This document shows positions 26,724-64,000 of a stretch of 64,000 nucleotides of DNA, in pieces. The position numbers were made by a program, and so were the translations under genes. Under the pieces are notes generated by a model. The model was given only the letters and a program-made list of their open reading frames with translations, made no database searches and was not told where the DNA came from. Position 1 is the first letter of the stretch; every line of letters starts with the position of its first letter. The DNA comes from Deltaproteobacteria bacterium (GTDB lineage: Bacteria; Desulfobacterota; Syntrophobacteria; BM002): contig JARRNM010000013.1 in assembly GCA_037384945.1 (NCBI GenBank), forward strand, positions 1,321 through 65,320, read 5' to 3'.

Positions 26724-27123
26724 ACTGGCAGCGGCACAGTTGATGCTCCACCGCTATATTTTCTTCCCAAGTGAATGAGCTATAAGCAAATGACGGCAGT
26801 TAGCAATCGCCCGTCACCCTGGTCCCGCATCACCGATGAATCGGGATCTCCGCTTCACTCCGGCAAGCTGCGGGATGGGCTCCGGCTGGGATGCAGGTAG
26901 GTCATGCCTTCAAGTCATCCGAAGACTGAATTATTGAACAGTCTGGATTTGCCAAGAGGAGGAATTCCACAATGAATGTCATGGCGGTTCTTACCCAAGT
27001 GGAGTCGGCAACGTTCCTGGTGCGCTGGGCAGCAAGATTTGCTCAAGGGCAGCCATCGGCTTCATCCGTCTCGAGAGTCTGGTAGGTAAGCCGTCATGGC
27101 TCGGTTTAATCGGAAGCCGTATC

Positions 27124-28101
27124 TTGGGCTGGCTGCCGGTTCTCGATGCTGAGGACCGGATCGACTTGTTTGATCGACTTCAGGTGGGTGCCCGGTGGAA
27201 TGTTGATTTCATCATGATGATTTCTTTGTCAACGGCCATTGCCTCTCTTGGATTGATCCAGAATTCTACTGCAGTGGTGATTGGCGCCATGGTCGTGGCC
27301 CCCCTGATGACACCGCTCATTGGCTCAGGGCTCGCTCTTGTCCAGGGAAATACCTCACTTTTTCGTGATTCTCTCAAGGCAATGTGATTCGGGATCGGTG
27401 CGGCTTTGCTCATCTCAATCTTTTTCGGCTTAACTGCCCCCATGGAAGCTTTGACCCCGGAGCTACTTGCCCGGGGAGCGCCTACCCTCATTGATCTGGC
27501 AGTGGCCTTTCTTTCTGGGGTTGCCGCCGCTTATGCCGTGGCCCGACCCTCATTACTGGGGGCCCTCGCCGGGGTGGCAATAGCCGCAGCTCTTGTGCCT
27601 CCCCTGGCAACCGTTGGCATTGCCTTTGCCACGGGCGCCTGGAAAATCTCTCAAGGTGCAGCTATTCTTTTCCTCACCAACCTGGTTGCCATTATCCTCG
27701 GTGCGGCATTTATATATCGTCGCCTCGGTATCCAAGGCACCAGGTTAGGCATCAGGTCGCCTCTGTGGATGCGACGGACGGTTCTCTCTCTGATTCTCAT
27801 CGCAGTGATGTTAACTGCGCCCCTGGGATTCAAGCTGGCCCGGCAACTGCGCGAAGGCCAGACCCGCCCATACACTTTGCCGGTAAGCCTTTCAGTTTAC
27901 CAGGCTATCAAAGAACGCATCCATCAAGAATATGGGGTAACCCTAATCTCTGCCCTTCGTTTTGGGATCAAGAGCGACACTGATGCTGCCATCATCCTGA
28001 GTGCTCAAAAGCCCGTATCCGTGAATCTCTTATCGGATCTCAAACAACTGGTAAACGATAAAATAGGGGAAAATGTTCGCGTGGCGGTTCATGTGCTCTA
28101 G
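27124..28101 (+). pseudogene. DUF389-family membrane protein interrupted by an in-frame TGA (27388-27390). A likely additional frameshift lies upstream near 27080.
   Basis: ORFs 27124..27387 and 27406..28101 are in the same frame and together match DUF389 (…SLKAM*FGIGAALLISIFFG…). An upstream RBS+ATG at 26955 opens a different frame that stops at 27083. Confidence 0.55.
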
Positions 28102-28173
28102 GAAGCAAGAGTTAAACGGACCAAATTTTGATGAGACCGGAGCGAGGGTAACTTATTCGTCAACCGTTATATC

Positions 28174-28340
28174 GTCTCCATCCGGAGACTTGCTTTTCCG
28201 TTGTCATTCTGAGGAGTCCCGCGAATGGCGGGACGACGAACAATCTCGTGGCTATGGGGATTGCGGGAGATTCTTCGCGGAGCTTGTCCTGAGGAAAACG
28301 AAGGGCTCAGAATAAAAATGTTGAGTTTCCGGATGGAGAC
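28174..28340. repeat. Family C MITE-like element, copy 1 (~167 bp). TIR GTCTCCATCCGGAGAC / GTTTCCGGATGGAGAC; internal hairpin TCATTCTGAGG ... CTCAGAATAA.
   Basis: Second copy at 44787-44958, about 80% identical. ORF 28073..28315 inside it is judged spurious. Confidence 0.65.
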
Positions 28341-28661
28341 TATATAGTTCTAATAGTTGATATTCATCAATATTTGACCAATGCTTATCAGGTGTACACT
28401 CGGATGTCTGACTTATCTAGGGTCTGTCTAAGGTCCCGGTGAGTGATTTAACCCGTCCAATCCACACTTTGCTTTGAATACCAAGGTATTATATTCTGGG
28501 TTAAGCTCAGACCATGCGGAGTTAAATGAATATCCCTTTTGATAAAATTTTAAGATGAACTTACAACTTAAATTAGGAATTCAAATGAGAGGAAAATTTA
28601 ACAGCGGAATTTTTTCTTTGCAAGTCTTCTTATAATTCCTGCACTTGGTGAAGAAGTCAAA

Positions 28662-29228
28662 ATGGATATGAATCTCGATTTGCAAGTAAGAAGATTTATA
28701 GAAAGCCATAGAGGCCAGTGGGTGGACTGGAATATTCCCGCAGTTGATGGTCAGGTTCTGTATGATCTTATCATACAGAATAAGTATAAAAAAGCAGTTG
28801 ATATTGGCACTTCCACAGGGCACTCGGCGATTTGGATGGCATGGGCATTAAGCAAAACCGGTGGAGAACTTATTACGATCGAGATAGATGAAGGGCGCTA
28901 TAGAGAGGCCCTGGCGAACTTTAAACAAGCCGGACTCGACGGTTACATCGATGCACGGCTTGCTGATGCCCATGGACTCGTTAAAAAATTGGCAGGTCCC
29001 TTTGATTTTGTTTTTTGTGATGCGGACAAAGAGTGGTATAAGAACTACTTCGTAGCCTTAGCTCCCAAACTCGAAGTTGGCGGCTGTTTTACTGCACATA
29101 ATGTCTCTTGGAGGTCTGATAGAGGCATCAAAGAGTTTCTTGATTATGTACTAAGCTTACCTAATTTCGAGACCAAAATAGACAGGTCCAGCCAACAGAA
29201 CATTTCGATTAGCTTTAAGAAGTGGTAG
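28662..29228 (+). CDS. Class I SAM-dependent O-methyltransferase (caffeoyl-CoA OMT-like)
   Basis: VDIGTSTGHSAIWMA (motif I) and FDFVFCDADK (motif post-I/II). Low-GC gene. Confidence 0.8.
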   Translation: MDMNLDLQVRRFIESHRGQWVDWNIPAVDGQVLYDLIIQNKYKKAVDIGTSTGHSAIWMAWALSKTGGELITIEIDEGRYREALANFKQAGLDGYIDARLADAHGLVKKLAGPFDFVFCDADKEWYKNYFVALAPKLEVGGCFTAHNVSWRSDRGIKEFLDYVLSLPNFETKIDRSSQQNISISFKKW

Positions 29229-29359
29229 TTTTAGGGACAATGGGCCCGAAATTTCGCTAGGAGAGTCCTTGGTTTTGCTATAACTATTGGGTATCACCAG
29301 CCCATCCCCTTCACGGAAGCTCCACATGGTTATACCAAGCTACTATCTCACCAATGGAG

Positions 29360-29557
29360 CTATGCTATTTTAGCTTCAAGCTCTTCTTCTCGAGCATGGA
29401 GAAATAAAGACTCTGCCGCTGAGTCGCTCTGATCTATTTCCAAAAATCTGCTTCTGAGGGCCGGACATTCCAGGAATAGATTTAAGCGCTTCTCCAGGTC
29501 CCCTTTCCTGTATTCCTCCAAAATACTCTCGCTCCTGGTCATTTCTTTATCCTCCAT
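29360..29557 (-). CDS. Hypothetical small acidic protein (65 aa)
   Basis: ORF immediately downstream of the hydrolase gene. No motif. Confidence 0.3.
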   Translation of the reverse strand: MEDKEMTRSESILEEYRKGDLEKRLNLFLECPALRSRFLEIDQSDSAAESLFLHAREEELEAKIA

Positions 29558-30448
29558 TTACTTTATCTTATCCCCCAAGTAATCCAAGGCGCTATTTACT
29601 ACCGAGCTTTCAGTCAGGATTTTTTTGTGACCCAAACGCTCGGTCGTGTGCAATTCAATGTTTGGAAACCTTTCTGAGATCTCTCTGGAATCATCATATG
29701 GGATAGTGGGGTCATTCTTGTCGTGAACTATCAGAATCTTTGAGTCGATTTTTCTCAATAGATTGATCGGGTTGTCTCGCTGCATATTGTAGCCGAACTC
29801 ATCTTCATACTCTTTTATAAGGATTTCATAGATGGTCCGGGGGATACCGACATGATCGAAAAAACCATACAAGACTTCCTTGAGCCTCAAGGCCGGGGCG
29901 ATGAGAACCACTTCCAGGGGATGATTTTCTTTTTCCATGCTGTTGACCACAGCCGAACCTCCCAGGGAGTGGGCAATTACACCCCGGATATTGTAACCAT
30001 CACGAGACCTTATCAGGGCCCTGATGGTGTCGCTAAACTCGAAGTAACTTGATGTTCTCCCCTGAGACTCTCCATGGCCTGGAGCGTCATAGGTAAGTAC
30101 CGAATATCCTCTTTGTATAAGTGGTTCAATAAAGCGATGTAATTGGATCCCCCTGCCGTTCCATCCGTGAGCCAGGAGAACGCCGGGGCCACTCCCCCAC
30201 TTCCAACACTTTACAGCCTTGTCGCTTATAGAAATCTCAAATCTCTCGCCGTTGTCAAGATACTCTCTTTCCACAGGAGTGATTTTGTAGATAGCGGGGG
30301 TGAAGAGCATCCTCTTGATGATTCCTTTCGAAAGACTGGCTGTATGGTTCCAGAGTAAATTGAAAAAGGTGTGAGTAACTTTTTGTCTCAGCTTGTATAA
30401 ACGAACGTTCGTGCTATTACATCCCAATGCTAAAATTTTAGTAGACAT
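29558..30448 (-). CDS. Alpha/beta-fold hydrolase (esterase/lipase-like)
   Basis: HGWNGRG oxyanion region and the nucleophile elbow AHSLGG. Confidence 0.8.
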   Translation of the reverse strand: MSTKILALGCNSTNVRLYKLRQKVTHTFFNLLWNHTASLSKGIIKRMLFTPAIYKITPVEREYLDNGERFEISISDKAVKCWKWGSGPGVLLAHGWNGRGIQLHRFIEPLIQRGYSVLTYDAPGHGESQGRTSSYFEFSDTIRALIRSRDGYNIRGVIAHSLGGSAVVNSMEKENHPLEVVLIAPALRLKEVLYGFFDHVGIPRTIYEILIKEYEDEFGYNMQRDNPINLLRKIDSKILIVHDKNDPTIPYDDSREISERFPNIELHTTERLGHKKILTESSVVNSALDYLGDKIK

Positions 30449-30510
30449 TGTTTCCCTCCTGAGAGCAGATTGCCAACCATAGTGCAGTAAGCAAAAAACG
30501 ATAACAACTA

Positions 30511-31128
30511 TTATTGATAGTTGGCCACGAGTTGATTCAGAGCTTGTTCTTGACGCTTTTTGGTTTCAGAGTCGTCAAGTAATTTGTCATAAAGGTGAAA
30601 ACCAAGCAAAAGAGAATAAAGGTCAAAGGCAAATTGTTCACAGTCCGCATCCTTCCTGAATGCGCCGACCTTTATTGCCGATTGGGCAATACGGCGAAGG
30701 CAATCGATCCAATCGTTTTGTTGACGCAACAAACATTCCCTCACTCTTCCGGGCCTGTCGCTATAGTCTGCGCTGGCCGAAACAAAGATACATCCACCCG
30801 TCAATTGGGAAGTCCAGTCTATCCAATTATTGACCAACGCTTTTATTCTTGGAATACCGGGCTCGGTGTCCAAGGCCGGAACAATGACACTCTTGGCAAA
30901 AACACGGGCAGCGTACTCCAATATTTCAATCTGCAGGTTCTCCTTAGATTGGAAGTGAGCGAATAATCCACTTTTGGACATGTTCATGGCCTTCGCAAGG
31001 GAGCCAATGCTCACACCTTCGAGGCCCAGTTGACTGGCCATATCGAGCCCGGCTTCCAGGATGGCCATTTTTGTCTCTTTCCCCTTTTGCATGTCCAACA
31101 ATATAGTACGAACGTTCGTTTTTGTCAA
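30511..31128 (-). CDS. TetR/AcrR-family transcriptional regulator
   Basis: N-terminal HTH LEGVSIGSLAKAMNMSKSGLFAHFQSKENL. Confidence 0.8.
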   Translation of the reverse strand: MTKTNVRTILLDMQKGKETKMAILEAGLDMASQLGLEGVSIGSLAKAMNMSKSGLFAHFQSKENLQIEILEYAARVFAKSVIVPALDTEPGIPRIKALVNNWIDWTSQLTGGCIFVSASADYSDRPGRVRECLLRQQNDWIDCLRRIAQSAIKVGAFRKDADCEQFAFDLYSLLLGFHLYDKLLDDSETKKRQEQALNQLVANYQ

Positions 31129-31444
31129 GTTTTTTAAAATCCATGAGTTTCCCCAAAAATCAGTGGATCATTCTTCTAAATTCTGTTTAAGAGCCAGTTT
31201 GCCTTGAGTTTGCAAGTGCAAGTTGCTGCTGAGCAACCGCTCCTCACTCTCTCAGCTTTGCGAGGGCCAGCATGAAGATATGGTGCTCACTAAGTAGGAA
31301 TCCTGCCAATAGATGGAGCGAATCATGCCCGTTGTGGAGTAGCTTCCCCGGGGCCTATATCTCTAAAATATTTTTGGGGAAACTTCTGCATTCAAGTCCC
31401 CCGGGGTAATTTCTATGTGGAGGGTGGAGGGGAAAAAGGAGAGC

Positions 31445-32668: not shown

Positions 32669-32776
32669 AAAGAAAAGCCGCCTATTATTTCCTAGTGTTT
32701 TCTTGCAGCTGCGTCGTGCTTCCCGTCAACAAGCAAGTTTGTATAGATCCTTCAAGGTTTTGTCAACTCTTTTGTC

Positions 32777-33745: not shown

Positions 33746-33764
33746 GGTCGTTGCCCTAAACAGC

Positions 33765-39081: not shown

Positions 39082-39813
39082 CTAGAGGATTTGACTGAGG
39101 AATAGCTTGGTGCGGTCGTGGGTGGGATTGTGAAAGAAATGCTCTGGCGTGCCCACCTCAACAATTTTGCCCTCGTCCATAAAAATTACCCGATCCGCAA
39201 CCTCCCGGGCAAAACCCATCTCATGGGTTACCACCACCATAGTCATCCCTTCCCCGGCCAGTGCTTTCATGACATCAAGCACCTCTCCGATCATCTCAGG
39301 ATCGAGAGCCGAGGTCGGCTCGTCAAAGAGCATCACCTTGGGGTCCATTGCCAAGGCCCTGGCGATGGCAACCCTTTGCTGCTGACCACCGGAGAGGTTG
39401 TCCGGGTAGGAGTCGGCCTTCTCAGGGATGCCCACCTTTTTCAAGAGGGCCATGGCTTTTTCTGCCGCCTCTTTTTTGGAGCGTTTTCGCACTACTGTCT
39501 GGGCCAGAGTCAGATTTCCCATAACCGTCTTGTGGCCAAAAAGATTGAAGGACTGAAAGACCATACCCATTTCCTCTCTGACCTTGTTGATGTTGGTCTT
39601 GTGATCGAGAATATCAATCCCGTCTATGTAAATATGGCCTTTGTCAGCTTTCTCCAGCATATTCAGACAACGCAGCAATGTGCTCTTGCCCGATCCCGAG
39701 GGGCCGATGATCACCACCACCTCCCCTTTATCAATTTGGCATGAAACATCGACCAGTGCCTCGACCTTGTGGGTGGTATAGAAGGTTTTATGAACGTGTT
39801 CCGCCCTAACCAC
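39082..39813 (-). CDS. Polar amino acid ABC transporter ATP-binding protein
   Basis: Walker [18 protein letters not shown], Walker [15 protein letters not shown] start overlaps the corrected permease stop (GTGGTTAG). Confidence 0.9.
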
Positions 39814-40754
39814 CGATTGCAGTCCTCCTTTCCAGATATTGAACGAACATGGACAGGGTAAAGGTCAGCATTAGATAAAGAATAGCACAGATGAACCAAA
39901 GTTCGAAAGGCTGCAAGCTGCTGGTGACCACTGAACTGACCTGCCAACGGCGGCAGAATCCGGCGGAAGGCCTGTGGCAGGATAATGTAGCCCATGGATT
40001 GCGGATAGGTCATCCCAAGAGAACGAGCCGCTTCCATCTGCCCCCGGTGAATAGACTGGATGCCGGCTCGAACAATCTCGGCCACATAAGCCCCGGCGAA
40101 CACTGCCAGGGCAGCCACACCGTACCACAGGGCTGAGAGTTGGCCTATGCCCTGTTTGGCCAGCAAGGTATTGAACACGGTCCCCAGGACGAAATACCAG
40201 ATAAAAATCTGCACAAGAAGAGGTGAACCCCTTATGAGTTCGATGTAGGTAATCGCTGTCCACCTGAGGGCAGGATTCTTGGAGATCCTGGCCAGACCGG
40301 CAAAGAGGCCTATTATAATTCCCAGGAACACGGCAATGATACTGACTTTCAGGGTAATCCACAGCCCTATAAGCAGTATGCCAACTTTCCATTTCTGGTA
40401 GACGCCAAGGATGTCACCGGGATAAATGTAGGCCCCCTTGCTCACCTGCAGCGAACGGGCAGGGACTGGATAAACCTCCTCCACATCACCTCCCCGGACG
40501 GCGACCTCCACTTGATCCCCTTTGGGTACCAGAGAGACCACTTTGCCGCCTATCTGCGAGCGGACTTCAATGGTGTCTTTGTAGAAGAAGTACTGGGGTA
40601 TCCGGTACCAGCGCCAGACATAATCCACCTTCTTAGTGGCTATCAAAAGCAAGAGGATGACTGTGGCCATCATCAAGAAAAAGAAAATTATTGAGATGTG
40701 ACGCCAGCCACGGGTTCGTAGATAGTCAGTGAGTGAAAAGCTGCCTGTGGTCAC
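39806..40754 (-). CDS. Polar amino acid ABC transporter permease (HisM/GlnP family) with a long N-terminal extension and an apparent 1-nt frameshift near 39926-39940
   Basis: Frame 0 matches the family up to ...[16 protein letters not shown]. The last TM ([38 protein letters not shown]) is encoded in the +1 frame, which ends at TAG 39806-39808. Confidence 0.7.
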
Positions 40755-42715: not shown

Positions 42716-43589
42716 GCCACAACCGCATATTGTCAATCAATCTTGCCTTGCCGACAAAAACCGCCATAGCCATTAGCGCCTTGGGAGTCACTTCGGCTAT
42801 ATCGGTCATAGTATCCTCGTCAACCACTTGCACATACTGAATTGTACAGTGGGGCTCAGCGCGTATAATTGCCTCGGTCTTGTCTATCAACACCTCCACT
42901 CGACGCTCGCCCCCCTGCACCATTTCGCGGGCAGCGAGGAGAGAGCGGTACAGGGAGAGAGCCGATTGCCTTTCCTCTGTGGAAAGGTAGGTGTTGCGGC
43001 TGCTCATGGCCAGGCCATCGGACTCACGCACAGTGGGGTGAGGGATAATTTCCACTCCCAAATTAAGGTCTTTACTCAGCCTTCTGACCACGACAAATTG
43101 TTGGAAGTCCTTTTCTCCCATGACGGCGATATGGGGGCGAACTGCACAAAACAGCTTGGTGACAATCAGGGTGACACCTGGGAAAAAATCTGGTCGGTAG
43201 AGGCCGCAGAGGTTCTGGGTAAGATCGTCCACCAACACACGCGTTTGAAAGCCGACCGGATACATCTCTTCAACTTCCGGGGCAAAGATGGCGTGCGCCC
43301 CCAATTCAGCGCAGAGATCAACGTCCCGTTTAAAATCGCGGGGATACTGGTCGAGATCTTCACCCGGGCTAAACTGGCTGGGGTTGACAAATATGCTTAC
43401 AACTACCTGGTCCGCCCTGCGCAAGGCCTCTTTCACCAAGGCGAGGTGTCCCTGATGCAGGTACCCCATGGTAGGGACGAAGGCGACGGTTTGGCTTTTG
43501 CGGCAGCATTCATCTCGCCACCTGGCCATCTCAGCAGTGGTTCGCAGTATTTCCATGAGACGGGGCTCCTCGCAGGCGAAGTCAGACAT
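42708..43589 (-). CDS. panC: Pantoate--beta-alanine ligase
   Basis: PTMGYLHQGHLALV (HxGH motif). Confidence 0.9.
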   Translation of the reverse strand: MSDFACEEPRLMEILRTTAEMARWRDECCRKSQTVAFVPTMGYLHQGHLALVKEALRRADQVVVSIFVNPSQFSPGEDLDQYPRDFKRDVDLCAELGAHAIFAPEVEEMYPVGFQTRVLVDDLTQNLCGLYRPDFFPGVTLIVTKLFCAVRPHIAVMGEKDFQQFVVVRRLSKDLNLGVEIIPHPTVRESDGLAMSSRNTYLSTEERQSALSLYRSLLAAREMVQGGERRVEVLIDKTEAIIRAEPHCTIQYVQVVDEDTMTDIAEVTPKALMAMAVFVGKARLIDNMRLWPH

Positions 43590-46149: not shown

Positions 46150-46986
46150 CTAGGTCGGTACTATCTCCATACTCATATCAACTGCGCGGGCTGAGTGGGT
46201 TAGAGCTCCAATTGATATCAAATCAACCCCTGTAGCAGCAATCTCTCTGACATTTGCCAGGGTAATTCCACCGGAGGCCTCAAGGGGGATTTTGCCTTTG
46301 GTTCGCCGCACTGCCTCAGCCATGGTTTGTAAGTCCATGTTGTCCAACATTATTACGTGAGCACCTGCAGCAATTGCTTCGGCCAACTGGTCGAGGGTTT
46401 CCACCTCCACTTCCACCCTCAGAGTATGAGCCTTGCTATCCAGTGCCGCCTTAACCGCCATAGCCATCGAGCCCGCTGCCGCAATGTGGGGGTCTTAGAT
46501 TAACACCCCATCCTCAACTCCGAGGCGAAGGTTGTTAACCCCCCCGGCGCGCACTGCAGCCTTTTCCAATAAACGGTATCCCGGGGTGGTCTTACGGGTG
46601 TCCAGAATGTGTGCTCTGGTTCCCCCTATCTTGTCCACAAAAGCCCTAGTGAGCGTGGCGATACCGGAAAGCCTCTGAAAAAAATTGAGGGCCGTCCGTT
46701 CCGCCGTGAGGATGGCTGCCAGATCGCCCGCTACCTCCAAAAGCGTATCCCCCTCATTAGCACGGCTCCCGTCTTTTAGGGGAAGATGAATCTGCAACTC
46801 GCTATTAATAGCCCAGAAAACTTGTCTCGCCACGTCAACGCCTGCAAGCACCAGCGGCTCTTTGGCTGTGATCCGCCCCTTTCCCTGAATCCCTGGCTTC
46901 ACTGTGCAAGAAGTGGTTATATCGCCACTTCCTACGTCCTCCTCCAGGGCTGTGCGAATTAACATTTCCAGGTTTGGAGATAGCAA
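46150..46986 (-). pseudogene. nadC: Nicotinate-nucleotide pyrophosphorylase (NadC) with an in-frame TAA at the conserved catalytic Lys codon
   Basis: Two adjacent same-strand ORFs align end to end with NadC. The junction reads GVLI*DPHIAAAGS where the family has (F/V)LIKDNHI. The stop TAA is at 46495-46497. Confidence 0.7.
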
Positions 46987-49848: not shown

Positions 49849-51111
49849 TCACTCCCCTGATTCCAGAGAACTCTTTATCTTTTCAATCTCCTGAGCTAGT
49901 AAGCGTTCAACAATATCAGGCAATCGCTCTTCAACCAGACGGGTCAACACTTCTTCAACCTGACCACTCACCAGGGATGCCAACTCCTCGGCTACATTCG
50001 GGGCGATTTCCTCAGAAATATTCATCTGCTTTTCCTCTTCTGTCTCCCCTTCCAAGTCGGCAACCAACCCTTCGGACTCTTCCTCTACGGCCAGAGCCGA
50101 CGCCGCCGCTACTGTCTCGTCGATAAGGCTGTCCAATTCCCCTTCAAAATCGCTAGCCACGTCTTCAGAACCTTCTTCTCCAGCAGAAGCTGAGGCTTCG
50201 GCTACCTTCTCGTCGAAAGCGCTATCTAATTCCCTGTCAAAATCGGTCACGACTTCAGCTGGAACTTCTTCTTCAATAGCAGGTCTTGTCTCGGAAGTGT
50301 CCCCTTCCTCGCCTACACCTTCAGCCTCCATCTCCAAGTCTGCAAAAATATCTTCGGGCAGCTCTTCCTCCGACACTGGGGCCGCCTCAAAAGCCTCCCC
50401 TTCCTCGCTTACACCTTCAGCCTCCGCCTCCAGATCTGCAAAAAGATCTTCAGGCAGCTCTTCCTCCGACACTGGAGCCGCCTCGGAAGTGTCCCCTTCC
50501 TCGCCTACACCTTCAGCCTCCATCTCCAAGTCTGCAAAAAGATCTCCGCCCGGTTCTCCCTCTGATACTGGGGCCGCCTCAAAAGCCTCCCCTTCCTCGC
50601 TTACACCTTCAGCCTCCGCCTCCAGATCTGCAAAAAGATCTTCGGGCAGCTCTTCCTCCGATACCGGAGCCGCCTCACCAGAAGGACCACTTTCAATTTC
50701 CCCGGGAGAACCAGCGGCCTCCTCTAAGAGCTTAGCAACTTCACTTTCGTGGGAGGCAAAGAGTTCGGCGAGAGCCTCGTCGCTGAAAAGCTCGTCTTCG
50801 GCGATTTCCTCGTCTGCTTCTCCCGCAGCGGCTTCGCTTGTCTCATCCTCATCCCTGAGTGATCCTCCAAGCTCGCTTTCCCTCTCACTCCAAGAATCGC
50901 TCTGGCTATCTCCCTCATCTTCACGAGGTTCCATCATAGAGTCTTGCGAAGGTTCATCCTCCCCAAGCTCCAGTTCCACATCAAAATCTTCCAAGGAAAG
51001 ATCCCTGTCCTCGTTCAATATTTCATCATGGGCAAGGGAATCATCGGATTCCGCACCTTCCCCCTCCAACGGATCAACCAGATCGATGATCTCATCGTCA
51101 AAGTCATCCAA
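49849..51111 (-). CDS. Hyper-acidic tandem-repeat protein (420 aa) with ~30 aa repeats (EELPEDLFADLEAEAEGVSEEGEAFEAAPVS) and a short conserved basic/hydrophobic C-terminus
   Basis: Nucleotide-level tandem repeats at 50290-50690. The opposite-strand Ser-rich ORFs are artefacts. Confidence 0.65.
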   Translation of the reverse strand: MDDFDDEIIDLVDPLEGEGAESDDSLAHDEILNEDRDLSLEDFDVELELGEDEPSQDSMMEPREDEGDSQSDSWSERESELGGSLRDEDETSEAAAGEADEEIAEDELFSDEALAELFASHESEVAKLLEEAAGSPGEIESGPSGEAAPVSEEELPEDLFADLEAEAEGVSEEGEAFEAAPVSEGEPGGDLFADLEMEAEGVGEEGDTSEAAPVSEEELPEDLFADLEAEAEGVSEEGEAFEAAPVSEEELPEDIFADLEMEAEGVGEEGDTSETRPAIEEEVPAEVVTDFDRELDSAFDEKVAEASASAGEEGSEDVASDFEGELDSLIDETVAAASALAVEEESEGLVADLEGETEEEKQMNISEEIAPNVAEELASLVSGQVEEVLTRLVEERLPDIVERLLAQEIEKIKSSLESGE

Positions 51112-51384
51112 TTGGAAATCAAGATCATCTCGTTTGAATTCCGGCTCATGGCTCCGATTTCCAAGTTAATTAGGGATGTTAGCGACTTATAAAACCGTCC
51201 TACGAATAGCACATGCCTTCCAACGCTGTCAAGCGATTTTCCCTCGTGGCTAAATCTCCGTTTACAAACCTACCACCATTGGTTAGACTCAATTGCGACT
51301 CAGCCTGGATGTCTTGGAGGCAAAGAATCCGGGCCCCAGGAGCGGCTTGAAGTCGCATCCAAAGGTCTTTTCTTTATCTGTAAG

Positions 51385-53257: not shown

Positions 53258-53274
53258 AGGCAACCACGGTTCTT

Positions 53275-53693: not shown

Positions 53694-54911
53694 TTATTGA
53701 GCGTTTAGCCACTGATTGAGCAAATAAGGCTTGGCCTCCTCGAATATCATACATTCGTTTTCGATGTATTCCTCTGCCTGCTGGATGGACATTCTTTCGG
53801 TTTTCTTGATCAACGACAGCGTCTTACCAACAAAGAGAGGCAATAGTGATTTCAGCAGCACATCCCTTCCCACCACTTCATTCTTATAGGCCACCGAGCA
53901 ACTATAAAGTAGGCGAGCCCAGATTTCCGAAGGAAAGCTAAAATGCGCCTGAGGCAGCTCCTTGATTTCCCCCAGCTTATTATTGATGTTGTTTGGCAAA
54001 AAGGTTTCCCATAAGTCTTTATATTGGCTAAAGCCCTCAACAAAAGCTCGGTGAAGTTCGTCCTGCAAGATCTCAATTGGTGGGGGCGTTTCTACTTCAC
54101 CCATGCCGAAACCGTATATTGCCGTGGGCTTACTCCACTTTACTCTTTCCCAGACATCCTGAAAACGGATCATCAGATCAAGAACGGTACCCACCACTTG
54201 AGAGAAAGTCGGCTCAGAGGCAACACCATTTCCGTTATTCTGGGAGACTCTCGGTTTACCTACAAAGGCCTGACAGATTGGGACGCCTTGACACATGGCT
54301 AGAGTGGTCATCCAGATATCAACCCCATATTGAGCCACTCGATCATTCCAGCTGGGATGGTTGAGATAAGTCTCAGCCATCACTGCATCAAAGGCAAAAT
54401 CGCCACCGATGGGCTGCCGCACCCGGCGACCATAGAGAGCTCGTGTCATCGGATAAACTATGCCGTTTGCCATGGCATCATTGTACTTGTGCCTCACGTA
54501 CAATGGGGCTACAAAACCGAATCCGGCGAAAATGGGCTCTCCGAGGTTTTTGATCCACATGGGAGTAATACTCTCCACCCCTGCGTCCACTGCTATCACC
54601 GCTTGCGCCTGTAGTTCAACTGCCTTGGCTGTAAGATTTCTTAGGTTATAGCCTCGCCCGACCACTCCCGGGGGTGTTGACAGGTATATTAGAAATGCTT
54701 CTTTGGTTCCATCCTCGGAGTGATTATCGCAATTGATAATCACCGAACTTTTCTCACCAAAATGATCTACGAGACCTTTGGCAGCTTGCTCAGTTGACAG
54801 GGCGATGTTCCCTGCATTGGTATGAGAGGATAAGCCGACAACCAGGTCAGCCCGTTCCACTTTTCCGGGATTTTCCTCGTATGCTAGCATATTTGTACTT
54901 TCCCCAGGCAT
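53694..54911 (-). CDS. GT-A-fold glycosyltransferase (GT2/GT81-like; possibly a glycosyl-glycerate/phosphoglycerate synthase type)
   Basis: ADLVVGLSSHTNAGNI, then VIINCDNHSEDGTKE (the DxxSxDxT-type motif of GT-A enzymes) and AVIAVDAGVES (DxD-like). Confidence 0.5.
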   Translation of the reverse strand: MPGESTNMLAYEENPGKVERADLVVGLSSHTNAGNIALSTEQAAKGLVDHFGEKSSVIINCDNHSEDGTKEAFLIYLSTPPGVVGRGYNLRNLTAKAVELQAQAVIAVDAGVESITPMWIKNLGEPIFAGFGFVAPLYVRHKYNDAMANGIVYPMTRALYGRRVRQPIGGDFAFDAVMAETYLNHPSWNDRVAQYGVDIWMTTLAMCQGVPICQAFVGKPRVSQNNGNGVASEPTFSQVVGTVLDLMIRFQDVWERVKWSKPTAIYGFGMGEVETPPPIEILQDELHRAFVEGFSQYKDLWETFLPNNINNKLGEIKELPQAHFSFPSEIWARLLYSCSVAYKNEVVGRDVLLKSLLPLFVGKTLSLIKKTERMSIQQAEEYIENECMIFEEAKPYLLNQWLNAQ

Positions 54912-57056: not shown

Positions 57057-57084
57057 ACAAACCAGGCCCAGAGGATTTAGCTCT

Positions 57085-57170
57085 GAGCTGACACCACTGT
57101 GGGCTTTGGGTCTCAGGTTTCAGGTGTCAGGTTTCAGAAATGAAAGACCTGAACACTGAAACCTCGCTCT
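57085..57170. repeat. Hairpin module GGTCTCAGGTTTCAGGTGTCAGGTTTCAG ... CCTGAACACTGAAACC
   Basis: Homologous to 59640-59720 and 39005-39060. Confidence 0.5.
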
Positions 57171-57202
57171 CTAGTATTTGAAATTCGTTCTGGAGGATCA
57201 CC

Positions 57203-57898: not shown

Positions 57899-58023
57899 CA
57901 GGAAGAATTCCATCGTTGGTTGCGGCTGGTCGGGAAGTTAGTGAAGCCTTGCGAACCCCGAAACAGTGCTTATTTTGCATATATGATTGCTGATTATCTC
58001 CTCACTCTTCCTCGGAAAACGAT

Positions 58024-58434
58024 ATGAAAAAAAGCGTACTCTTTATCTGTTATGGTAACGCCTGCCGAAGCATCATGGGTGAAGCTCTGACCAGGTACCA
58101 CTGGAATGACGCCCTGGAGGCGGCTTCCGCCGGATTGAGTGCTTTGGGCTATGTGCCTGAAGAAACAACATCCGTTCTTGAGGAGATGGGGGTCTCCACC
58201 CATGATCTTTATTCCAAAGGATTGTCCGAGGTGGAGCTCGACAGTTTTGACCTGATTGTGGATTTCCTGGGGTATCCCTTGGAAAACCTTATGCCTCCAG
58301 GTTTCAAGGGCAAAATAGTTCATTGGCAGGTAATGGATCCTTTTTCGGAAAGTTTGGAGTCCTTCAGGCAGACAAGGGACACCATTCAGTGGCTGGTGAC
58401 TGAGCAGCTTCCTAAGTGGGTTGACGGGGAATGA
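58024..58434 (+). CDS. Low-molecular-weight protein tyrosine phosphatase / ArsC-LMWP family
   Basis: P-loop VLFICYGNACRS (CX5R-S). Confidence 0.8.
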   Translation: MKKSVLFICYGNACRSIMGEALTRYHWNDALEAASAGLSALGYVPEETTSVLEEMGVSTHDLYSKGLSEVELDSFDLIVDFLGYPLENLMPPGFKGKIVHWQVMDPFSESLESFRQTRDTIQWLVTEQLPKWVDGE

Positions 58435-58615
58435 GCTGGATTTGCGCTCAGCCCCATCTCACATTTCACCATAGTCTTCTCTCATTACTCGTTGTACATT
58501 TGAAGATCAAACAATTACTTGAAAATTTACTGCAATGAAAAAATGATAAATGCGCGATGAGAAATGATAAATGACGCTGTGCGCTATGCACCAAGCTCTA
58601 GGCTAGTGGAAAATC

Positions 58616-59425
58616 ATGAAAGACTATTATAAACTTCTTGAAGTGGACCGCCATGCTTCTGATGAGCAGATTCGCAAGTCTTATCGAAAATTAGCCCTTA
58701 AGTACCACCCGGACCGTAACCCAGGTAATCCAAGAGCAGAGGAACATTTCAAGGAGATTGCTGAAGCCTATGGCGTTCTCATTGACCCTGCCAAGCGCTC
58801 CGAGTACGATCGGTGGCTCGGAACCGGGGCTCAGGAGAGGAGGACTGGCGGAGGCTTTCACTATTCTCGGGAGGAAATTTTTCAGGATCTTTTCAAGGAT
58901 CCAAGATTCAGCCGTGTTTTCCAAGATCTTTTCAGTGAGTTTGAAAAAGCCGGCTTCCGTTTCGATCAAAAATTTTTTGATCAAACCTTTTTTGGCGGCC
59001 GTGGAGTATTTTTTGGCACCTTTTTCCTTTGGGGTCCCTTTGGTTTTCGTCGAATGAAAATAGGAAGACCTCAACAGGGCTCCAAGCTTGTGCGGTTCGG
59101 GACTCGACAAACTCAGCCTTTTGGATTGTTAAAGCGCTTGGGAAAGAAAATTGGTAACTTACTCCTGGGAAGCCAGAAAGAACTGCCGGCAGGAAGACAA
59201 AACACTACCCTTAGACCTCAAGATCTCACCTATAATCTTACCATTCCTACTACAGAGGCCGAGCGCGGCACCTGGGTAACAATCTCCATCGATCGGGGAC
59301 GAGGACAGGAAAAGTTAAAGGTAAAAATACCACCTGGGACTCACTCTGGACGCCGATTGCGCCTCAAAGGCAAAGGAAGGGCCGATGGGAACGGCGACCT
59401 CTACCTCACTGTTAATCTGGATTAG
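58616..59425 (+). CDS. J-domain protein (CbpA/DnaJ-like, without the zinc-finger region)
   Basis: J domain with HPD ([10 protein letters not shown]), and C-terminal DnaJ_C-like GDLYLTVNL. Confidence 0.8.
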
Positions 59426-59586
59426 CCCGGAGACTTTTGGAGTGGAAAAACAGCAGTTATTTGTTGATTTTAGAACATTCCCTTCCGATTTAGGATTGCG
59501 GATTTATGGATCAAGTAAAGAATCCGACTCCTGAGGACCAGGTTTCGGGCATCCCCGGAACTGGTCTATCCTCGTGAGGGACTCTG

Positions 59587-59850
59587 CTGGAGTAATGGAA
59601 CCTATGAAATCCCAAACTCCAAGCACCAAATCTTAGGGTTTTAGGTGTCGGGTGTCAGGTGTCAGCCTTTGTGTTTCTCCTCCCTGACACCTGAAACCTG
59701 AACACTGAAACCTTAGTCCTTCTTCTGTGGAATTTTCGGATACTCCACTACTCCAGTACTCCAATAGAGCTTACGATCTTTAACGGCAAAGCCTTCAGTT
59801 TTCACCTGGCTCAGAGGACCAGTTTCTCTTCGATCAAATAAACCCGCCAA
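59587..59850. repeat. ~260 bp composite repeat (family A termini GGAGTAATGGA ... ACTCCACTACTCCA, internal GGTGTCAGG hairpin, 3' conserved tail), upstream copy flanking the GGDEF-EAL gene
   Basis: The termini and the ~80 bp 3' tail (CCAAT.GAGCTTA...GGCAAAGCC.T..AGTTT.ACCTGG..CAGAGGACC.G.TTTCTCT) are shared with 62316-62545 in the same orientation. Confidence 0.6.
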
Positions 59851-59895
59851 TAAACCTTCTCAGACAGGCCTGATCGGCCAATCTCTCCATTAGAC

Positions 59896-62079
59896 TTGGC
59901 ACAGGATGTGCTTATCCTCAGTGAGATGAAATCACACCGAGAAGATGGACTATTAAACAAGGGTTGTGATCCAGTGGAAAAGTCCAATGTAGTTTTGGTG
60001 GCTGAGAACGACAACGAGATCAGAGATCTGGTTTACACTCAGCTCGAAGCAGACGGGTTCAAAGTAATTTGTGTTACCAGCGGTGACCAGGCGGTTAGCG
60101 AGAGTCGCAGCCTGAAACCAGATGTCATTGTCATGGATCTGAAGATGCCAAGAATGAACGGCATCGAGGCTATAAAAATACTGAAAAAGGACAAAAGCAC
60201 CCGGCATATTCCCATTATAGTGGGGACGGTGGCCGAGGAAAGAGAAGACATAGTAAAGAGCTTTGAAGCCGGGGCAATATCTTACATCTCAAGACCTTAC
60301 TACATGCCGGAATTGAAGGCGAAGATCAATTCTGTTCTTGAATCAAAGAAGCTTTATGACAACTTGATGCAGTCGGAAGAGAAATACCGCCTGCTGGTTG
60401 AAAATGCCAACGACGCCATTCTGGTCATCCAGGACGAAATTCTCACATTCTATAATCCGAGAGCTTCTGAGCTCTTTGATTATCCAGAGAAAAAGCTAAG
60501 GTCCACCCGCTTTGTGGAATTTCTCCACGGGGAAGACAAGGACGAGTTTCATGAGTACCAAGACAGAATCCTCTTGGGCAGAAGAGCCTGCCCGGCCCTT
60601 TCTTTTCGCCTCCTGTCGAATGATGGGAATTTCAGATGGGTGGAGGCAAAGGGTGTCCTCATAGACTGGGATGGCAACCCCGCAACTCTTCATTTTCTTA
60701 CTGATATTACGGCCCGCAAGCGGACAGAAGAAGAGATGCGCTTTCTGGCCTTCTATGATTGTCTGACCGGTTTGCCTAACCGGCTGATGTTTAATGAACA
60801 CATGAATCAAACCCTGGCTTATGCCAGACGCAATAATACTCTCGTTGCCGCGCTATTCTTGGATCTCGATCATTTTAAGCGGGTTAATGATACACTTGGC
60901 CATCACTTGGGTGACACTCTGTTAAACGCTGTGGGAGAACGCTTAATAAGGATAATACGTAAGAGCGACATTCTCGCCCGCAATGTCGAAGACATATGCA
61001 ACACAAATATAGCCCGCTTCGGTGGAGACGAGTTTGTCTTGCTCCTTACTAATATCAAGAAAGCGCAAGACGCGGCTAAGGTAGCCAGACGCATTCTTTA
61101 TACACTTTCCGACGCTTTTGTTTTGGATTCTCACAAAATATTTATTACCACCAGCATTGGCATCAGCCTCTTTCCTGCTGACGGGCAAGACGGTGAGACT
61201 TTGATAAAAAATGCCGATAAAGCAATGTATCATGCGAAGAACTTGGGTAGAAACAATTACCAGTTTTATGCAGACTCTATCCAGGGTGGCACCTCCGAGA
61301 GGGTTACACTCAAAGCGGACCTCTACAAGGCCCTGGAGGCTAAGGAGCTGATTCTTTACTATCAACCACAACTGTCCATTGACACAAGATCGATCATCGG
61401 TACTGAGGCTCTTATACGCTGGCAGCATGCAAATTTAGGTGTGGTGCCTCCAGCAGACATCATACCGCTGGCTGAAGAAAGCGGTCTCATTGAATCTGTG
61501 AGCAAGTGGGTGCTTCAGACCGCCTGCCAGCAAAATCTGGCCTGGAGAGAGGCCGGGATGACAGAAATGCGCATGTCCGTGAATCTGTCCAGTCTCCTGT
61601 TAAAAGAGCAAAAACTGGCAGATCTGATCGCTGAGGTCTTAAGCGACACCGGGGCGGACCCATCTTTTTTGGAGATTGAACTTCCGGAAAGCTCCTTAAT
61701 TCAAGAAGAAGACGCGGTTAAAGTTTTGCGGGATCTAAAGGATATAGGTGTTAGGATAGCCGCTGATGATTTTGGCACTGGTTATTCATCCCTGCACCAT
61801 CTAAGGAACGTCCCTCTGGATGTCTTGAAGATAGATCGATCCTTCATAAAGAATATTCCCGAAAATGGTGATAATGCCGCGATTGTTGCCGCCACCATTG
61901 CCATGGCACACAGCCTGAACCTGGAAGTTGTGGCAGTGGGAGTAGAGACTGAAGCGCAGCTGGAATTTTTGCGCGAGCGAGGATGTGACACCATTCAAGG
62001 ATACCTGTTCAGCCCACCTCTACCGGCCTATGATATTATCCCACTGCTGCAGGAAGAAGGCCTCGAAGTCACGATGTAA
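59896..62079 (+). CDS. Response-regulator receiver / PAS / GGDEF / EAL multidomain c-di-GMP turnover protein
   Basis: REC (VVLVAENDNE...VIVMDLKMP), PAS, GGDEF (RFGGDEFVLL) and EAL (EALIRW ... DDFGTGYSSL) motifs. Confidence 0.9.
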   Translation: MAQDVLILSEMKSHREDGLLNKGCDPVEKSNVVLVAENDNEIRDLVYTQLEADGFKVICVTSGDQAVSESRSLKPDVIVMDLKMPRMNGIEAIKILKKDKSTRHIPIIVGTVAEEREDIVKSFEAGAISYISRPYYMPELKAKINSVLESKKLYDNLMQSEEKYRLLVENANDAILVIQDEILTFYNPRASELFDYPEKKLRSTRFVEFLHGEDKDEFHEYQDRILLGRRACPALSFRLLSNDGNFRWVEAKGVLIDWDGNPATLHFLTDITARKRTEEEMRFLAFYDCLTGLPNRLMFNEHMNQTLAYARRNNTLVAALFLDLDHFKRVNDTLGHHLGDTLLNAVGERLIRIIRKSDILARNVEDICNTNIARFGGDEFVLLLTNIKKAQDAAKVARRILYTLSDAFVLDSHKIFITTSIGISLFPADGQDGETLIKNADKAMYHAKNLGRNNYQFYADSIQGGTSERVTLKADLYKALEAKELILYYQPQLSIDTRSIIGTEALIRWQHANLGVVPPADIIPLAEESGLIESVSKWVLQTACQQNLAWREAGMTEMRMSVNLSSLLLKEQKLADLIAEVLSDTGADPSFLEIELPESSLIQEEDAVKVLRDLKDIGVRIAADDFGTGYSSLHHLRNVPLDVLKIDRSFIKNIPENGDNAAIVAATIAMAHSLNLEVVAVGVETEAQLEFLRERGCDTIQGYLFSPPLPAYDIIPLLQEEGLEVTM

Positions 62080-62248
62080 TCTCACCCAGCATTTTTTCTA
62101 ACCCGGCGATTGTTTCCTCAAGTTCTTCGATCTCTTGAACCTGGTGCGGTCGAACAGAATGAGCCGGCAAAGCAGTTTCTCTATCGCGAAGCCTCGCTTT
62201 CAGTTCCTCAATTTCCTCAAGCAATCTTTCTCTTTTGCTCTTAGCCAT
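62069..62248 (-). CDS. Hypothetical 59-aa coiled-coil protein (SlyX-like flavour). Its stop overlaps the 3' end of the GGDEF-EAL gene.
   Basis: Hand-translated MAKSKRERLLEEIEELKARLRDRETALPAHSVRPHQVQEIEELEETIAGLEKMLGEITS. Confidence 0.25.
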   Translation of the reverse strand: MAKSKRERLLEEIEELKARLRDRETALPAHSVRPHQVQEIEELEETIAGLEKMLGEITS

Positions 62249-62315
62249 CTATTGTTCCCCTTCAGTCTAGGCTAATCCGCCCAGGGAGATATAAGAGGTG
62301 AGATGCGGTAGCCTG

Positions 62316-62545
62316 CCGGAGTAATGGAGTCCAGCGATTTTAAATTTTAGAATGAAGATTTCAGATTTAAGAGCTCAGAACTCACCGGCACGAGATGCAT
62401 GAAGCTTCATTCTGCAATCAACAATCCAAAATCATAAATGATATTTGCTCCACTACTCCAATGTAGCTTATTTAAAGGCAAAGCCCTTGAGTTTGACCTG
62501 GCCCAGAGGACCTGGTTTTCTCTACGGTTAAAGAATAATTCCTCT
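62316..62545. repeat. ~230 bp composite repeat, downstream copy flanking the GGDEF-EAL gene. Same termini and 3' tail as 59587-59850 but a different internal hairpin (GAATGAAG...CTTCATTC).
   Basis: See 59587-59850. Confidence 0.6.
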
Positions 62546-63594
62546 AAACAGTTTTCAAATGCTCCCGAATCATCAGGGCTGCACTGGCCCCCTCACCGGC
62601 AGCACTAGCCACCTGCTTGGTGCTTCTGTCCCGCACATCACCGGCAGCAAAGATACCAGGCACACTGGTCTCCAGTAGATGAGGATCTCGCTTTTCGTAA
62701 CCCTTGGGTCGTTTGCCACTGTGAACCAGATCATGGCCTGTTACGATGAAACCCCATTGATCCAAGATCACACCGCTTCCGGTGAGAAAGCCAGTGTTCG
62801 GCTCCAGACCAATAAAAATAAAGGCTCCATCTATAGGCAGATCCTCTTCCACACCATTTTGATTGTTCGCTATTCTGAGCTTCTTTAACCGGGAGCCCTC
62901 ACCCAGAAATTCTTTTACTTCTGTATGCCAGAGCACATCAATTCTGGGATGGCTCAAAACACTCTCCTGAATGATCTGGGTGGCCTTGAACTGGCCGCTT
63001 CTCACCAGCAAGGTCACCCTTTCGGCAAATTTGGTCAATAAAAGGCTCTCCTCGGTGGCGCTGTTACCACCACCCACCACTGCAACACTCTTTCCTTTAT
63101 AAAAGGGGCCATCGCAGGTGGCACAAAAATGCACACCGGCTCCCATGAATTCGCTTTCACCGGGCACATTCAGTCTTCGGTAGCGGCTTCCCGTGGTAAT
63201 GAGCAGGGCGCGACCGCTATACTCGGAACCGTCTCCGGTTTGCACGCAATGGTAGTTTTCATGACTATGAACGCGATCCACCTCCTGCGCCTGAAGTAAC
63301 TCCACCCCAAAGCGTTCCGCTTGTTGACGCAACCGTTGAGAGAATTCCATACCAGCCACCCCGTCTGGAAAGCCGGGCATATTGTCCAGTTTTTCCGTGC
63401 CTGCAGCCTGTCCTCCGAAGGCAGCCCGTTCTATCACCAGGGTATCGATGAACTCTCGAGCCGTGTAAACGGCTGCAGTCAGACCGGCAGGCCTGTTCCC
63501 CTAGAAACTGCTTGCTTTGCCGGCAATCTGGGCACCAGTAGGCGCCATAAACGGTTATTTCTCCTTTCGCCATATCTCTCATCTCCTTTTGCAT
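62544..63594 (-). pseudogene. trxB: Thioredoxin-disulfide reductase (TrxR, CATC active site) with a disrupted N-terminus. The FAD-binding GxGxxG region is in frame with a TAG (63500-63502). An upstream out-of-frame ATG opens a glutaredoxin/thioredoxin-fold-like leader (ITVYGAYWCPDCRQSKQFLGEQ).
   Basis: The intact ORF 62544..63437 starts at residue ~45 of TrxR. The same frame upstream reads MAPTGAQIAGKASSF*GNRPAGLTAAVYTAREFIDTLVIERAAFGGQ. The frame -1 ORF 63265..63594 begins with the CxxC motif. Confidence 0.6.
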
Positions 63595-64000
63595 CTGAAC
63601 TCAGAGGGGTGTCACTCCAAAACCGTTGATACTTGAAGATACTTGCCGATGTTTTGTCACCACCAGCCGCGCCAAGGCGAAAATCAAAATCTTCAGTATT
63701 ATATGATAATCACTTTGTCTTCTCTGTGCCCTTTCTGGCCGAAAGGAGTCTCAGCAGTTGCTTTGTCGGATCTCCGGGTAAAATGTTTGATCTTATCTAA
63801 AAAAATTGACTTTTTGCCAGACCCTGGTCAATCCCGGACAATGGATTTTCTTTCCCATTTCAGCAGGTAGATTGTGCTCATATATTTACTCTTGGGAATC
63901 CAGGTAAATCACCTCCTGCACTTAGTTGGCACACTTTAGATTTTCTTCTATCTATGATCCGAATGACTCCGATAAAAAGATATTTCGAACCACTTGACAA

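Follow-up and report, generated by a model that had tools for sequence, protein, structure and literature searches.

The 64,000-nucleotide stretch analysed here (the window), taken from contig JARRNM010000013.1 of the Deltaproteobacteria bacterium assembly GCA_037384945.1, carries several broken genes. Is the organism shedding these genes, or were they broken in the making of the record? Taken at face value, the record describes a syntroph-like bacterium that has lost de novo NAD synthesis, a thiol-redox enzyme and an amino-acid importer, and it invites a genome-decay story. Comparison with near-identical contigs makes it likely that the lesions have three origins: an old pseudogene of the Usp-DUF389 type, five record-only lesions seeded at homopolymers that would have a technical cause, and three private deletions without a homopolymer link.

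Window-wide comparison with near-identical assemblies

The comparators were contigs of 99.7-99.97% nucleotide identity from five JGI metagenomes, one NCBI MAG, and Logan and ENA assemblies; they are consensus assemblies, in which a rare strain would stay invisible. Between them, contigs from samples that were assembled separately span the full 64 kb. Across the whole window we found seven deletions private to the record (174, 27, 16, 71, 40, 24 and 212 bp), one private substitution patch in nadC, and no private insertions. The affected genes, including the one that is degraded throughout the population, are as follows.

1-1171, minus strand: ABC_tran_2-domain gene, 564 aa when intact, running off the start of the window and lying outside the interval of the disruptions first noticed.
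2356-3822, minus strand: transglutaminase-like gene, whose product is 488 aa in the window against 497 aa in the comparators.
26972-28128, plus strand: remnant of a Usp-DUF389 gene, a multi-hit pseudogene located in the window by a tblastn search with orthologue P0001 (95% identity).
28555-29228, plus strand: O-methyltransferase (intact length 229 aa), put out of frame by a private loss of 16 bp after 28615.
39711-40754, minus strand: GlnP-like amino-acid ABC permease (intact length 339 aa), from which 71 bp are missing at 39932/39933 in this record only.
46150-46986, minus strand: nadC (intact length 278 aa), in which 46460-46538 form a 79-nt patch of substitutions seen in this record only.
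49849-51212, minus strand: repeat protein with no family match, 467 aa, with a private 40-bp frameshifting deletion after 51130.
53694-54911, minus strand: hypothetical gene, 405 aa in the window; two assemblies have it called as 413 aa and two as 406 aa.
62544-63594, minus strand: glutaredoxin-like/TrxR-like (Grx-TrxR) fusion (intact length 420 aa), which lacks 212 bp at 63493/63494 in this record only.

Seven of about 57 genes are disrupted, six by a frameshift or nonsense codon and one by an in-frame loss of 58 codons, and two further genes have short in-frame deletions. This density, which the sequence-only reading had called unusual, exceeds the few percent that a rule of thumb would suggest for a free-living bacterium. 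The same reading had counted four disruptions (nadC, the gene it called trxB, DUF389 and the permease); all four genes are broken where it placed them, but the anatomy of the lesions differs from its description, and five further private deletions had been overlooked. Every private lesion is missing from two to four independent assemblies, in which the genes are full length and their domains complete.

Junction microhomology at the seven private deletions is 0-1 nt. Three of the seven lengths are divisible by 3, and private deletions have therefore not been filtered by selection. There are 12 isolated private SNPs in the window, a deletion-to-SNP ratio of about 7:12, which is far from natural when set against published mutation spectra. 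Apart from the lesions the sequence is about 99.98% accurate, with a neutral divergence of about 0.02%. The window represents a haplotype of its own, with natural-looking private variation, made up of the 12 isolated SNPs and a tract beside the permease lesion in which nine of ten changes are synonymous, and some of the private deletions could be real on this account.

Lesions at homopolymer runs

The population sequence over the span contains exactly five runs of at least 8 nt, and each of them falls on a private lesion, in the ABC_tran_2, methyltransferase, nadC, repeat-protein and Grx-TrxR genes; conversely, every comparator run of at least 8 nt inside the window span maps to one of these five sites. 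None of the 13 population runs of exactly 7 nt is hit by a private lesion. The window itself has no run of at least 8 nt and 14 runs of exactly 7. When lesions were placed at random, four or more of the five runs were touched in none of 1e6 trials, and the analytic chance of touching all five is about 2e-10. The population span is 64.5 kb, over which five such runs would correspond to about 80 per Mb.

Four of the run-linked lesions start inside or at the run and extend 16-212 nt in one direction, and the fifth is a deletion that contains its run. In the ABC_tran_2 gene a 174-bp in-frame deletion after 366 removes codons 269-327, with its junction within an A8 run. The 16-bp deletion in the O-methyltransferase falls in codons 21-26, with its junction within a T8 run, and the ORF that remains in the window begins anew at 28662 and is 188 aa long. 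The 40-bp deletion in the repeat protein falls in codons 28-41 and swallows a T8 run whole; a 96-bp tandem repeat lies within the span of this gene at 50300-50677.

The 212-bp junction in the Grx-TrxR gene falls within a population C9 run. Codons 34-105 are lost and the frame is shifted; the greater part of the Grx domain goes with them, as does the beginning of the FAD-binding region. In three comparator contigs (L010, L011 and L012) the 212-bp segment is present and identical, and the gene is intact at 420 aa. The name trxB given to this gene by the sequence-only reading was not retained: the intact population protein scores 315.4 bits against TIGR01292 (thioredoxin-disulfide reductase), below the equivalog cutoff of 343.45, and it has an additional N-terminal glutaredoxin-like domain at aa 13-86, for which a Grx-like/TrxR-like fusion is the better description.

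The lesion in nadC takes another form. Against TIGR00078 (quinolinate phosphoribosyltransferase; cutoff 198) the intact allele of the population (L001) reaches 333 bits, and it has the consensus catalytic motif. Codon-level comparison with L001-L003 places 14 substitutions in the 79-nt patch, and all 14 are transversions (ts:tv of 0:14), compared with 99:41 in the natural polymorphism of the same population. Ten codons are altered (G151V, Y152N, H154L, L158V, Y159E, K165*, N167P, I175M, Q176A and K177M), every one with replacement of the amino acid, and the remaining codons of the patch lack even synonymous differences. The conserved GGxNHRxGLxDxxLIKDNH motif is destroyed, and the H, L, K, N and I residues that were changed are invariant in an alignment with 16 homologues. 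The patch starts on the final base of a C run, which has eight bases in the population (C8) and seven in the window (C7, 46539-45). The in-frame TAA at K165 (46495-46497) is one of the 14 substitutions, which refutes the earlier argument that a nonsense substitution, not being a homopolymer indel, speaks against sequencing error. A simple phasing model, in which the wrong base is that of a neighbour, explains only the first three of the 14 changes.

A technical cause is most likely for the five homopolymer-linked lesions, because they are private, lie on the only five runs of at least 8 nt and leave the 7-nt runs untouched. The production of the record would have failed at runs of at least 8 nt, dropping or corrupting the stretch that follows, and the organism's real nadC and Grx-TrxR genes would then be intact. 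The failure may have arisen in the sequencing chemistry, when reads were trimmed, during assembly, gap closing or polishing, or in later handling. The earlier suggestion of a draft assembly with residual errors is thus supported for most lesions, which are private to the record and of which five sit on the only long runs, but not for DUF389, which is shared with the population; and the lesions are not independent, a homopolymer trigger being common to five of them.

We know of no pipeline that produces exactly such one-sided deletions together with a substitution patch. The only feature resembling a classic homopolymer error is the C8 to C7 change in nadC with a nearby extra A. The homopolymer errors described for long-read consensus sequences are insertions and deletions within the run (Sereika et al. 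2022, PMC9262707), a form that we read as changes of 1-2 nt and that the 16-212-nt one-sided deletions and the 14-substitution patch do not take. Read-level calling accuracy is already variable at homopolymer lengths of 8-9, while the consensus holds up to 10 nt (PMC9262707). The window resembles the long-read or flow-based consensus errors of that work in its long-run trigger, in the restriction of the lesions to one assembly, and in the apparent frameshifts and truncated ORFs in conserved genes; it differs in that the indels described there lie in the run (and are taken as 1-2 nt), whereas here one-sided losses of 16-212 nt or a 79-nt patch of substitutions only are found.

Deletions outside the runs and the case for real decay

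The 71-bp, 24-bp and 27-bp deletions are also private and would form a separate group without a homopolymer link. The 27-bp deletion, after 2434 in the transglutaminase-like gene, and the 24-bp deletion, after 54690 in the hypothetical gene at 53694-54911, where all comparators have 24 more bases, are both in frame. In the permease, codons 275-298 (ISLIKDSSLLGIIAVRELTKATRE) are lost and the frame is shifted, after which the window ORF runs over into the ATPase gene. No homopolymer is involved and the junction microhomology is 1 nt. A private tract of ten SNPs (39948-40053), nine of them synonymous, adjoins one side of the junction, and the other side has no SNPs. The junction thus borders what look like natural SNPs of another strain, and it may result from a mis-join where strains differ, or from a deletion that this strain really carries. 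The second possibility, a recombination scar in which a divergent-strain tract entered with one homologous and one illegitimate end and 71 bp were deleted, is consistent with the one-sided tract, the single nucleotide of microhomology and the frequency of divergent tracts in the population (for example in L007, L100 and L009); a chimeric assembly join of strain variants would look identical, and we regard the scar as possible though rather doubtful. The haplotype of the tract was not recovered elsewhere, a result of little weight for either view. The exact products of the broken permease and nadC ORFs are both absent from the assembly collection.

A real decay confined to this lineage would require an enrichment, bottlenecked or repair-defective clone that truly carries the deletions and the nadC patch, and in which long homopolymers would behave as fragile sites and set off both one-sided deletions and error-prone repair synthesis. 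The distinct haplotype with its private synonymous SNPs fits such a clone, as does the tolerance of at least one real pseudogene by the population; the lesions all lie in possibly dispensable genes, with the aaRS, ribosomal, MreB and MutL genes of the window intact, and bacterial mutation is typically biased towards deletions. None of the five long runs lies in a clearly essential gene, and lethality is therefore no argument against a biological origin at these sites. Against this, all five runs of at least 8 nt would have to be hit and all 13 of the 7-nt runs spared, at a neutral divergence of about 0.02%, while the same five runs are stable in every other assembly. Slippage at runs gives changes of one nucleotide, not losses of 16-212 nt at junctions where microhomology is 0-1 nt. 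A further objection is the deletion-to-SNP ratio, and another is the patch of 14 transversions out of 14, which has no counterpart in the population spectrum, and extrapolation of the lesion density would give hundreds of disrupted genes per genome, which would be inviable. We consider real decay in this lineage improbable. Its most specific form, a Syntrophobacteria-like clone in which every tract of at least 8 nt is fragile and yields either a one-sided, microhomology-free deletion of 16-212 nt or a hypermutated patch of transversions only, is more improbable still; if true, it would mean genome erosion gated by tract length, a mode not described before.

Reduction of the whole species, as a lifestyle under relaxed selection in which nadC, trxB, transporters and other genes are being shed, was the other explanation offered by the sequence-only reading. 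Its guess of a syntrophic lineage agrees with the taxonomy, the nearest relatives being Syntrophobacteria/Syntrophobacterales MAGs, and the stepwise decay of DUF389 across the whole population points the same way. The ongoing decay itself was not supported by the comparison. The nadC, Grx-TrxR and permease genes are each intact in three independently assembled environmental contigs of 99.7-99.97% identity, and these three together with the methyltransferase, ABC_tran_2 and repeat-protein genes are intact in all of the two to four near-identical assemblies available per site, so that DUF389 bears the only inactivating lesions common to the lineage. Both of the nearest relatives recovered retain nadC, with orthologues of 78% and 68% amino-acid identity. 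Population polymorphism in neighbouring genes indicates purifying rather than relaxed selection, with 72 synonymous and 68 nonsynonymous differences (pN/pS about 0.3 on an assumed 3:1 ratio of sites). Pseudogenes accumulate during reductive genome evolution in recent symbionts and pathogens such as Sodalis and Mycobacterium leprae, and the window resembles these genomes in its dense inactivation of housekeeping and transport genes and its deletion bias; there, however, lesions are lineage-wide and selection is relaxed, whereas the lesions of the window, except that in DUF389, are missing from near-identical environmental genomes. Reduction at the species level is thus very improbable.

The Usp-DUF389 remnant and the gene content of the population

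Intact Usp-DUF389 orthologues are 617-620 aa long. In the window the first 25 codons are retained (26972-27046), and an out-of-frame internal deletion of about 703 nt at 27046/27047 has removed aa 26-259, which include the Usp domains. A TGA at 27385-27387 stands in place of a Gly codon (GGA) and a TAG at 28099-28101 in place of a Gln codon (CAG), with nine conserved codons beyond. The deletion is common to all comparator assemblies, and both stops are present in every covering comparator contig except that of L007 (L004-L006 span both, L001 spans the TAG); L007, on a divergent haplotype, has GGA and CAG at these positions. The ancestral gene of 617-620 aa would first have lost its Usp domains through the deletion, and the major haplotype would later have gained the two nonsense codons, GGA to TGA and CAG to TAG. 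Judged from the aligned sequences, this is a genuine and old pseudogene of the natural population and a single, ordinary case. It is like the segregating or fixed pseudogenes of free-living populations, with a stepwise deletion followed by two nonsense mutations and an allele with an intact ORF (L007) still segregating, and it is no different from the usual pseudogene background, one in about 57 genes being the expected level.

Recoding could in principle keep the broken genes expressed, by selenocysteine insertion at the TGA, readthrough, programmed frameshifting or functional split genes. The first DUF389 stop is a TGA, and a 335-aa product with DUF389 only is called in eight sequences (L007 and cluster P0016). 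Selenocysteine was rejected for this TGA, which aligns with Gly in L007 and four orthologue sequences (P0001, P0007, P0016 and P0017) and not with Cys or Sec, in a gene that also has the 703-nt frameshifting deletion and a second stop. The Gly that it replaces is conserved, within a hydrophobic, probably membrane-spanning stretch. Elsewhere, the nadC stop is a TAA amid replaced invariant catalytic residues, and conserved core segments are deleted from the permease (ISLIKDSS...RE) and from the Grx-TrxR fusion (the Grx domain together with the first part of the FAD-binding region). Recoding has next to no likelihood as a general explanation.

The main value of these results is caution. The lesions are predictable from the positions of homopolymers of at least 8 nt, and this gives a reusable diagnostic: any assembly that lacks such runs, and has genes broken where its relatives carry them, should be suspected. 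Lineage-wide genome decay is not supported by the sequences compared. The one real pseudogene found, Usp-DUF389, is ordinary, and the natural population retains nadC, the Grx-TrxR fusion and the permease intact.

Gene content and population reference

Six-frame ORF maps and Pfam/NCBIfam scans of the window describe an ordinary, gene-dense stretch like that of a Gram-negative deltaproteobacterium, encoding PheST, ThrRS, IF3, L20/L35, MutL, MiaA, MreB, ValS, PanC and ProC, together with DivIVA, YggT, LptF/G and several signalling proteins. A Roadblock/LC7 protein and a small Ras/Arf-like GTPase, a pair reminiscent of an MglA/MglB-type module, belong to a cluster at 20554-26210 that also encodes a TPR-Ser/Thr kinase and a 797-aa protein; the latter has no family match and carries an internal repeat of ~120 bp (22443-22698). 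The nearest relatives of the nadC and DUF389 proteins belong to Syntrophobacteria/Syntrophobacterales MAGs; among the matches listed for nadC against genome contigs, the best was 78% identical and came from a Syntrophobacterales MAG. An alternative genetic code was rejected, as many long ORFs terminate at TGA, TAG or TAA.

Comparator contigs were found by exact-protein look-up with the intact window proteins MreB, DUF202, LMW phosphatase and MiaB-like. They derive from five separately assembled JGI metagenomes (3300056879, 3300056896, 3300057003, 3300057004 and 3300057030), one NCBI MAG (GCA_037385085.1), four Logan assemblies and one ENA assembly. Jointly these contigs span the full 64,000 bases, with nucleotide identity of 99.7-99.97%, and serve as a reference for the organism's own population. 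The window lineage is set apart from that population by just 12 isolated SNPs over 64 kb. Polymorphism among the comparators has a transition to transversion ratio of 99:41, with 72 synonymous and 68 nonsynonymous changes.

The sequence-only reading had listed four disrupted genes, and all four are indeed broken:

26972-28128, + strand, DUF389 gene
39711-40754, - strand, amino-acid ABC permease (GlnP-like)
46150-46986, - strand, nadC
62544-63594, - strand, pyridine-nucleotide-disulphide oxidoreductase (a Grx-like/TrxR-like fusion, previously called trxB)

The lesions differ from their earlier description and are more numerous: the window holds seven private deletions (absent from the comparators), a patch of substitutions in nadC and the lesions of DUF389. 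Private insertions relative to the population reference are absent, and microhomology at all seven deletion junctions is 0-1 nt.

Private deletions in the window (size; position; gene; effect)
174 bp; after 366; ABC_tran_2; codons 269-327 gone, in frame
27 bp; after 2434; transglutaminase-like; in frame
16 bp; after 28615; O-methyltransferase; frameshift at codon 21
71 bp; 39932/33; GlnP-like permease; codons 275-298 gone, frameshift
40 bp; after 51130; 467-aa repeat protein; frameshift
24 bp; after 54690; 413-aa hypothetical; in frame
212 bp; 63493/94; Grx-like/TrxR-like fusion; codons 34-105 gone, frameshift

In the comparators the Grx-TrxR fusion (420 aa), permease (339 aa), methyltransferase (229 aa), ABC_tran_2 protein (564 aa) and repeat protein (467 aa) are full length, as is nadC (278 aa; 333 bits with TIGR00078, whose cutoff is 198). 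With nadC, the fusion and the permease intact elsewhere in the population, the suggestion of genome decay is unsupported. Exact-protein look-up gave no match for the broken nadC-N ORF or the broken permease ORF.

In its intact form (comparator contig L010, 12244-13506) the fusion combines a glutaredoxin/mycoredoxin-like domain at aa 13-86 with a TrxR-like flavoprotein, and its 315 bits fall short of the curated cutoff for trxB, 343 bits. About four copies of a 96-bp (or 192-bp) tandem repeat (50290-50677) lie within the 467-aa protein, for which no family match was found; as the copy sequences vary among assemblies L010, L012 and L013, the population is polymorphic for this array. A DnaJ-like gene (58616-59425) was considered as a fifth truncated gene and rejected, being 269 aa in all assemblies with a natural C-terminal end. 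Apart from divergent tracts and contig ends, the sole sizeable comparator-private indel noted is in L016, a Logan contig, which lacks 14 bp (TCAGGTTTCAGGTG) at 57113-57126; this site is intergenic, upstream of a 231-aa gene, and no called gene is affected.

The DUF389 pseudogene and strain variation at the permease

Intact DUF389 orthologues are 617-620 aa and by homology search consist of Usp domains followed by DUF389. In a tblastn alignment with a 95%-identical orthologue as query, residues 1-25 map to 26972-27046 in one frame and residues 260-620 to 27046-28128 in another; thus ~703 nt, corresponding to residues 26-259, are missing. Two in-frame stops follow: the TGA at 27385 takes the place of a Gly in the orthologues and the TAG at 28099 that of a Gln, with nine conserved codons beyond the TAG. 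The deletion is common to all comparators, and both stops occur in every covering comparator contig (both sites in L004-L006; the TAG also in L001) except L007, a divergent haplotype with GGA and CAG at these sites. DUF389 is a real, old, multi-hit pseudogene of an ordinary kind, its latest hits still segregating.

The 71-bp permease deletion is private and has no homopolymer. It is adjoined by ten private SNPs (39948-40053), nine of them synonymous, and this tract is natural variation of another strain. Comparable dense tracts, mostly third-position, occur in single comparators: L100 at 13886-14730 (thrS 3' end through infC), L007 at 27213-28166 (the DUF389 remnant) and L009 at 24350-24473 (the kinase gene start). 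Such tracts suggest either frequent recombination among co-existing strains or chimeric strain assembly. Given the natural other-strain SNPs beside it, the permease lesion reflects either an erroneous join at a site of strain variation or a genuine scar of recombination. The 24- and 27-bp in-frame deletions, likewise private and free of a homopolymer link, may also be technical or real. At the permease 5' end (40597-40666), one comparator only, L001, has five clustered G->A changes (+ strand) altering four codons, perhaps through strand-specific error or as a deamination-like cluster in that assembly.

The nadC patch

The nadC lesion had been described as a substitution and taken as an argument against simple long-read error. 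The stop does not stand alone but belongs to a set of 14 private substitutions at 46460-46538, all transversions (0:14, against 99:41 in natural comparator polymorphism), and this patch starts from the final base of a C8 run and extends 79 nt in one direction, so that argument fails. Ten codons are hit, all nonsynonymously (G151V, Y152N, H154L, L158V, Y159E, K165*, N167P, I175M, Q176A and K177M), with loss of residues invariant across 16 homologues (motif GGxNHRxGL...LIKDNH). The unaltered codons of the patch show zero synonymous differences, so a diverged paralogue is excluded as the source of a conversion.

A phasing or slippage model, in which the wrong base is the neighbouring base, fits the first three changes and 5 of 14 overall, which is the chance level. 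A 15-mer, AACCGCCATAGCCAT (46453-46467), carrying five of the 14 altered bases, recurs on the same strand 3.7 kb away in panC (42759-42773). The estimated chance of this is ~0.03, and the recurrence is probably a coincidence; templated mutagenesis or gene conversion was rejected, as the four other change clusters have no donor. A small inversion was rejected because the mismatch positions are asymmetric. A mutator acting via the private MutL I81L was rejected too, as that substitution is conservative and the observed spectrum does not suit loss of mismatch repair.

Homopolymer runs and the origin of the lesions

Homopolymer runs were listed on the rebuilt population sequence over the window's span. 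Exactly five are at least 8 nt long (A8 ~363, T8 ~28611, C8 46538-46545, T8 ~51130 and C9 ~63491), and all five coincide with a private lesion; contrary to the earlier claim, the lesions are thus not independent. The junctions of the 174, 16 and 212 bp deletions fall within a run, each loss reaching one way from it, and the 40-bp deletion contains the T8 run at ~51130. The window itself has no run of at least 8 nt and 14 of exactly 7 nt, one being the shortened C8 and 13 the same as in the comparators. With eight lesions placed at random, at least four of the five runs were touched in 0 of 10^6 trials, and the analytic probability of hitting all five is ~2e-10. This diagnostic tie of private lesions to homopolymers of at least 8 nt is a useful product of the analysis.

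Residual assembly error, one of the two explanations offered originally, is supported for most lesions, which are private and homopolymer-linked. Long-read consensus homopolymer errors on record are indels inside runs (PMC9262707), which we read as ±1-2 nt, so the pattern here differs from the classic form. A real mutational process gated by tract length retains a small residual probability. It would have to hit every tract of at least 8 nt in a lineage only 12 isolated SNPs per 64 kb from its population, while these tracts stayed stable in all other assemblies, and to produce large one-sided deletions instead of ±1-nt slippage; extrapolated genome-wide, such a lesion load would not be viable. 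Nothing in the broken-gene cluster is a new biological system. A technical origin of the homopolymer-linked lesions is far more economical than a biological one, and the real nadC and Grx-TrxR genes of the organism are therefore taken to be intact.
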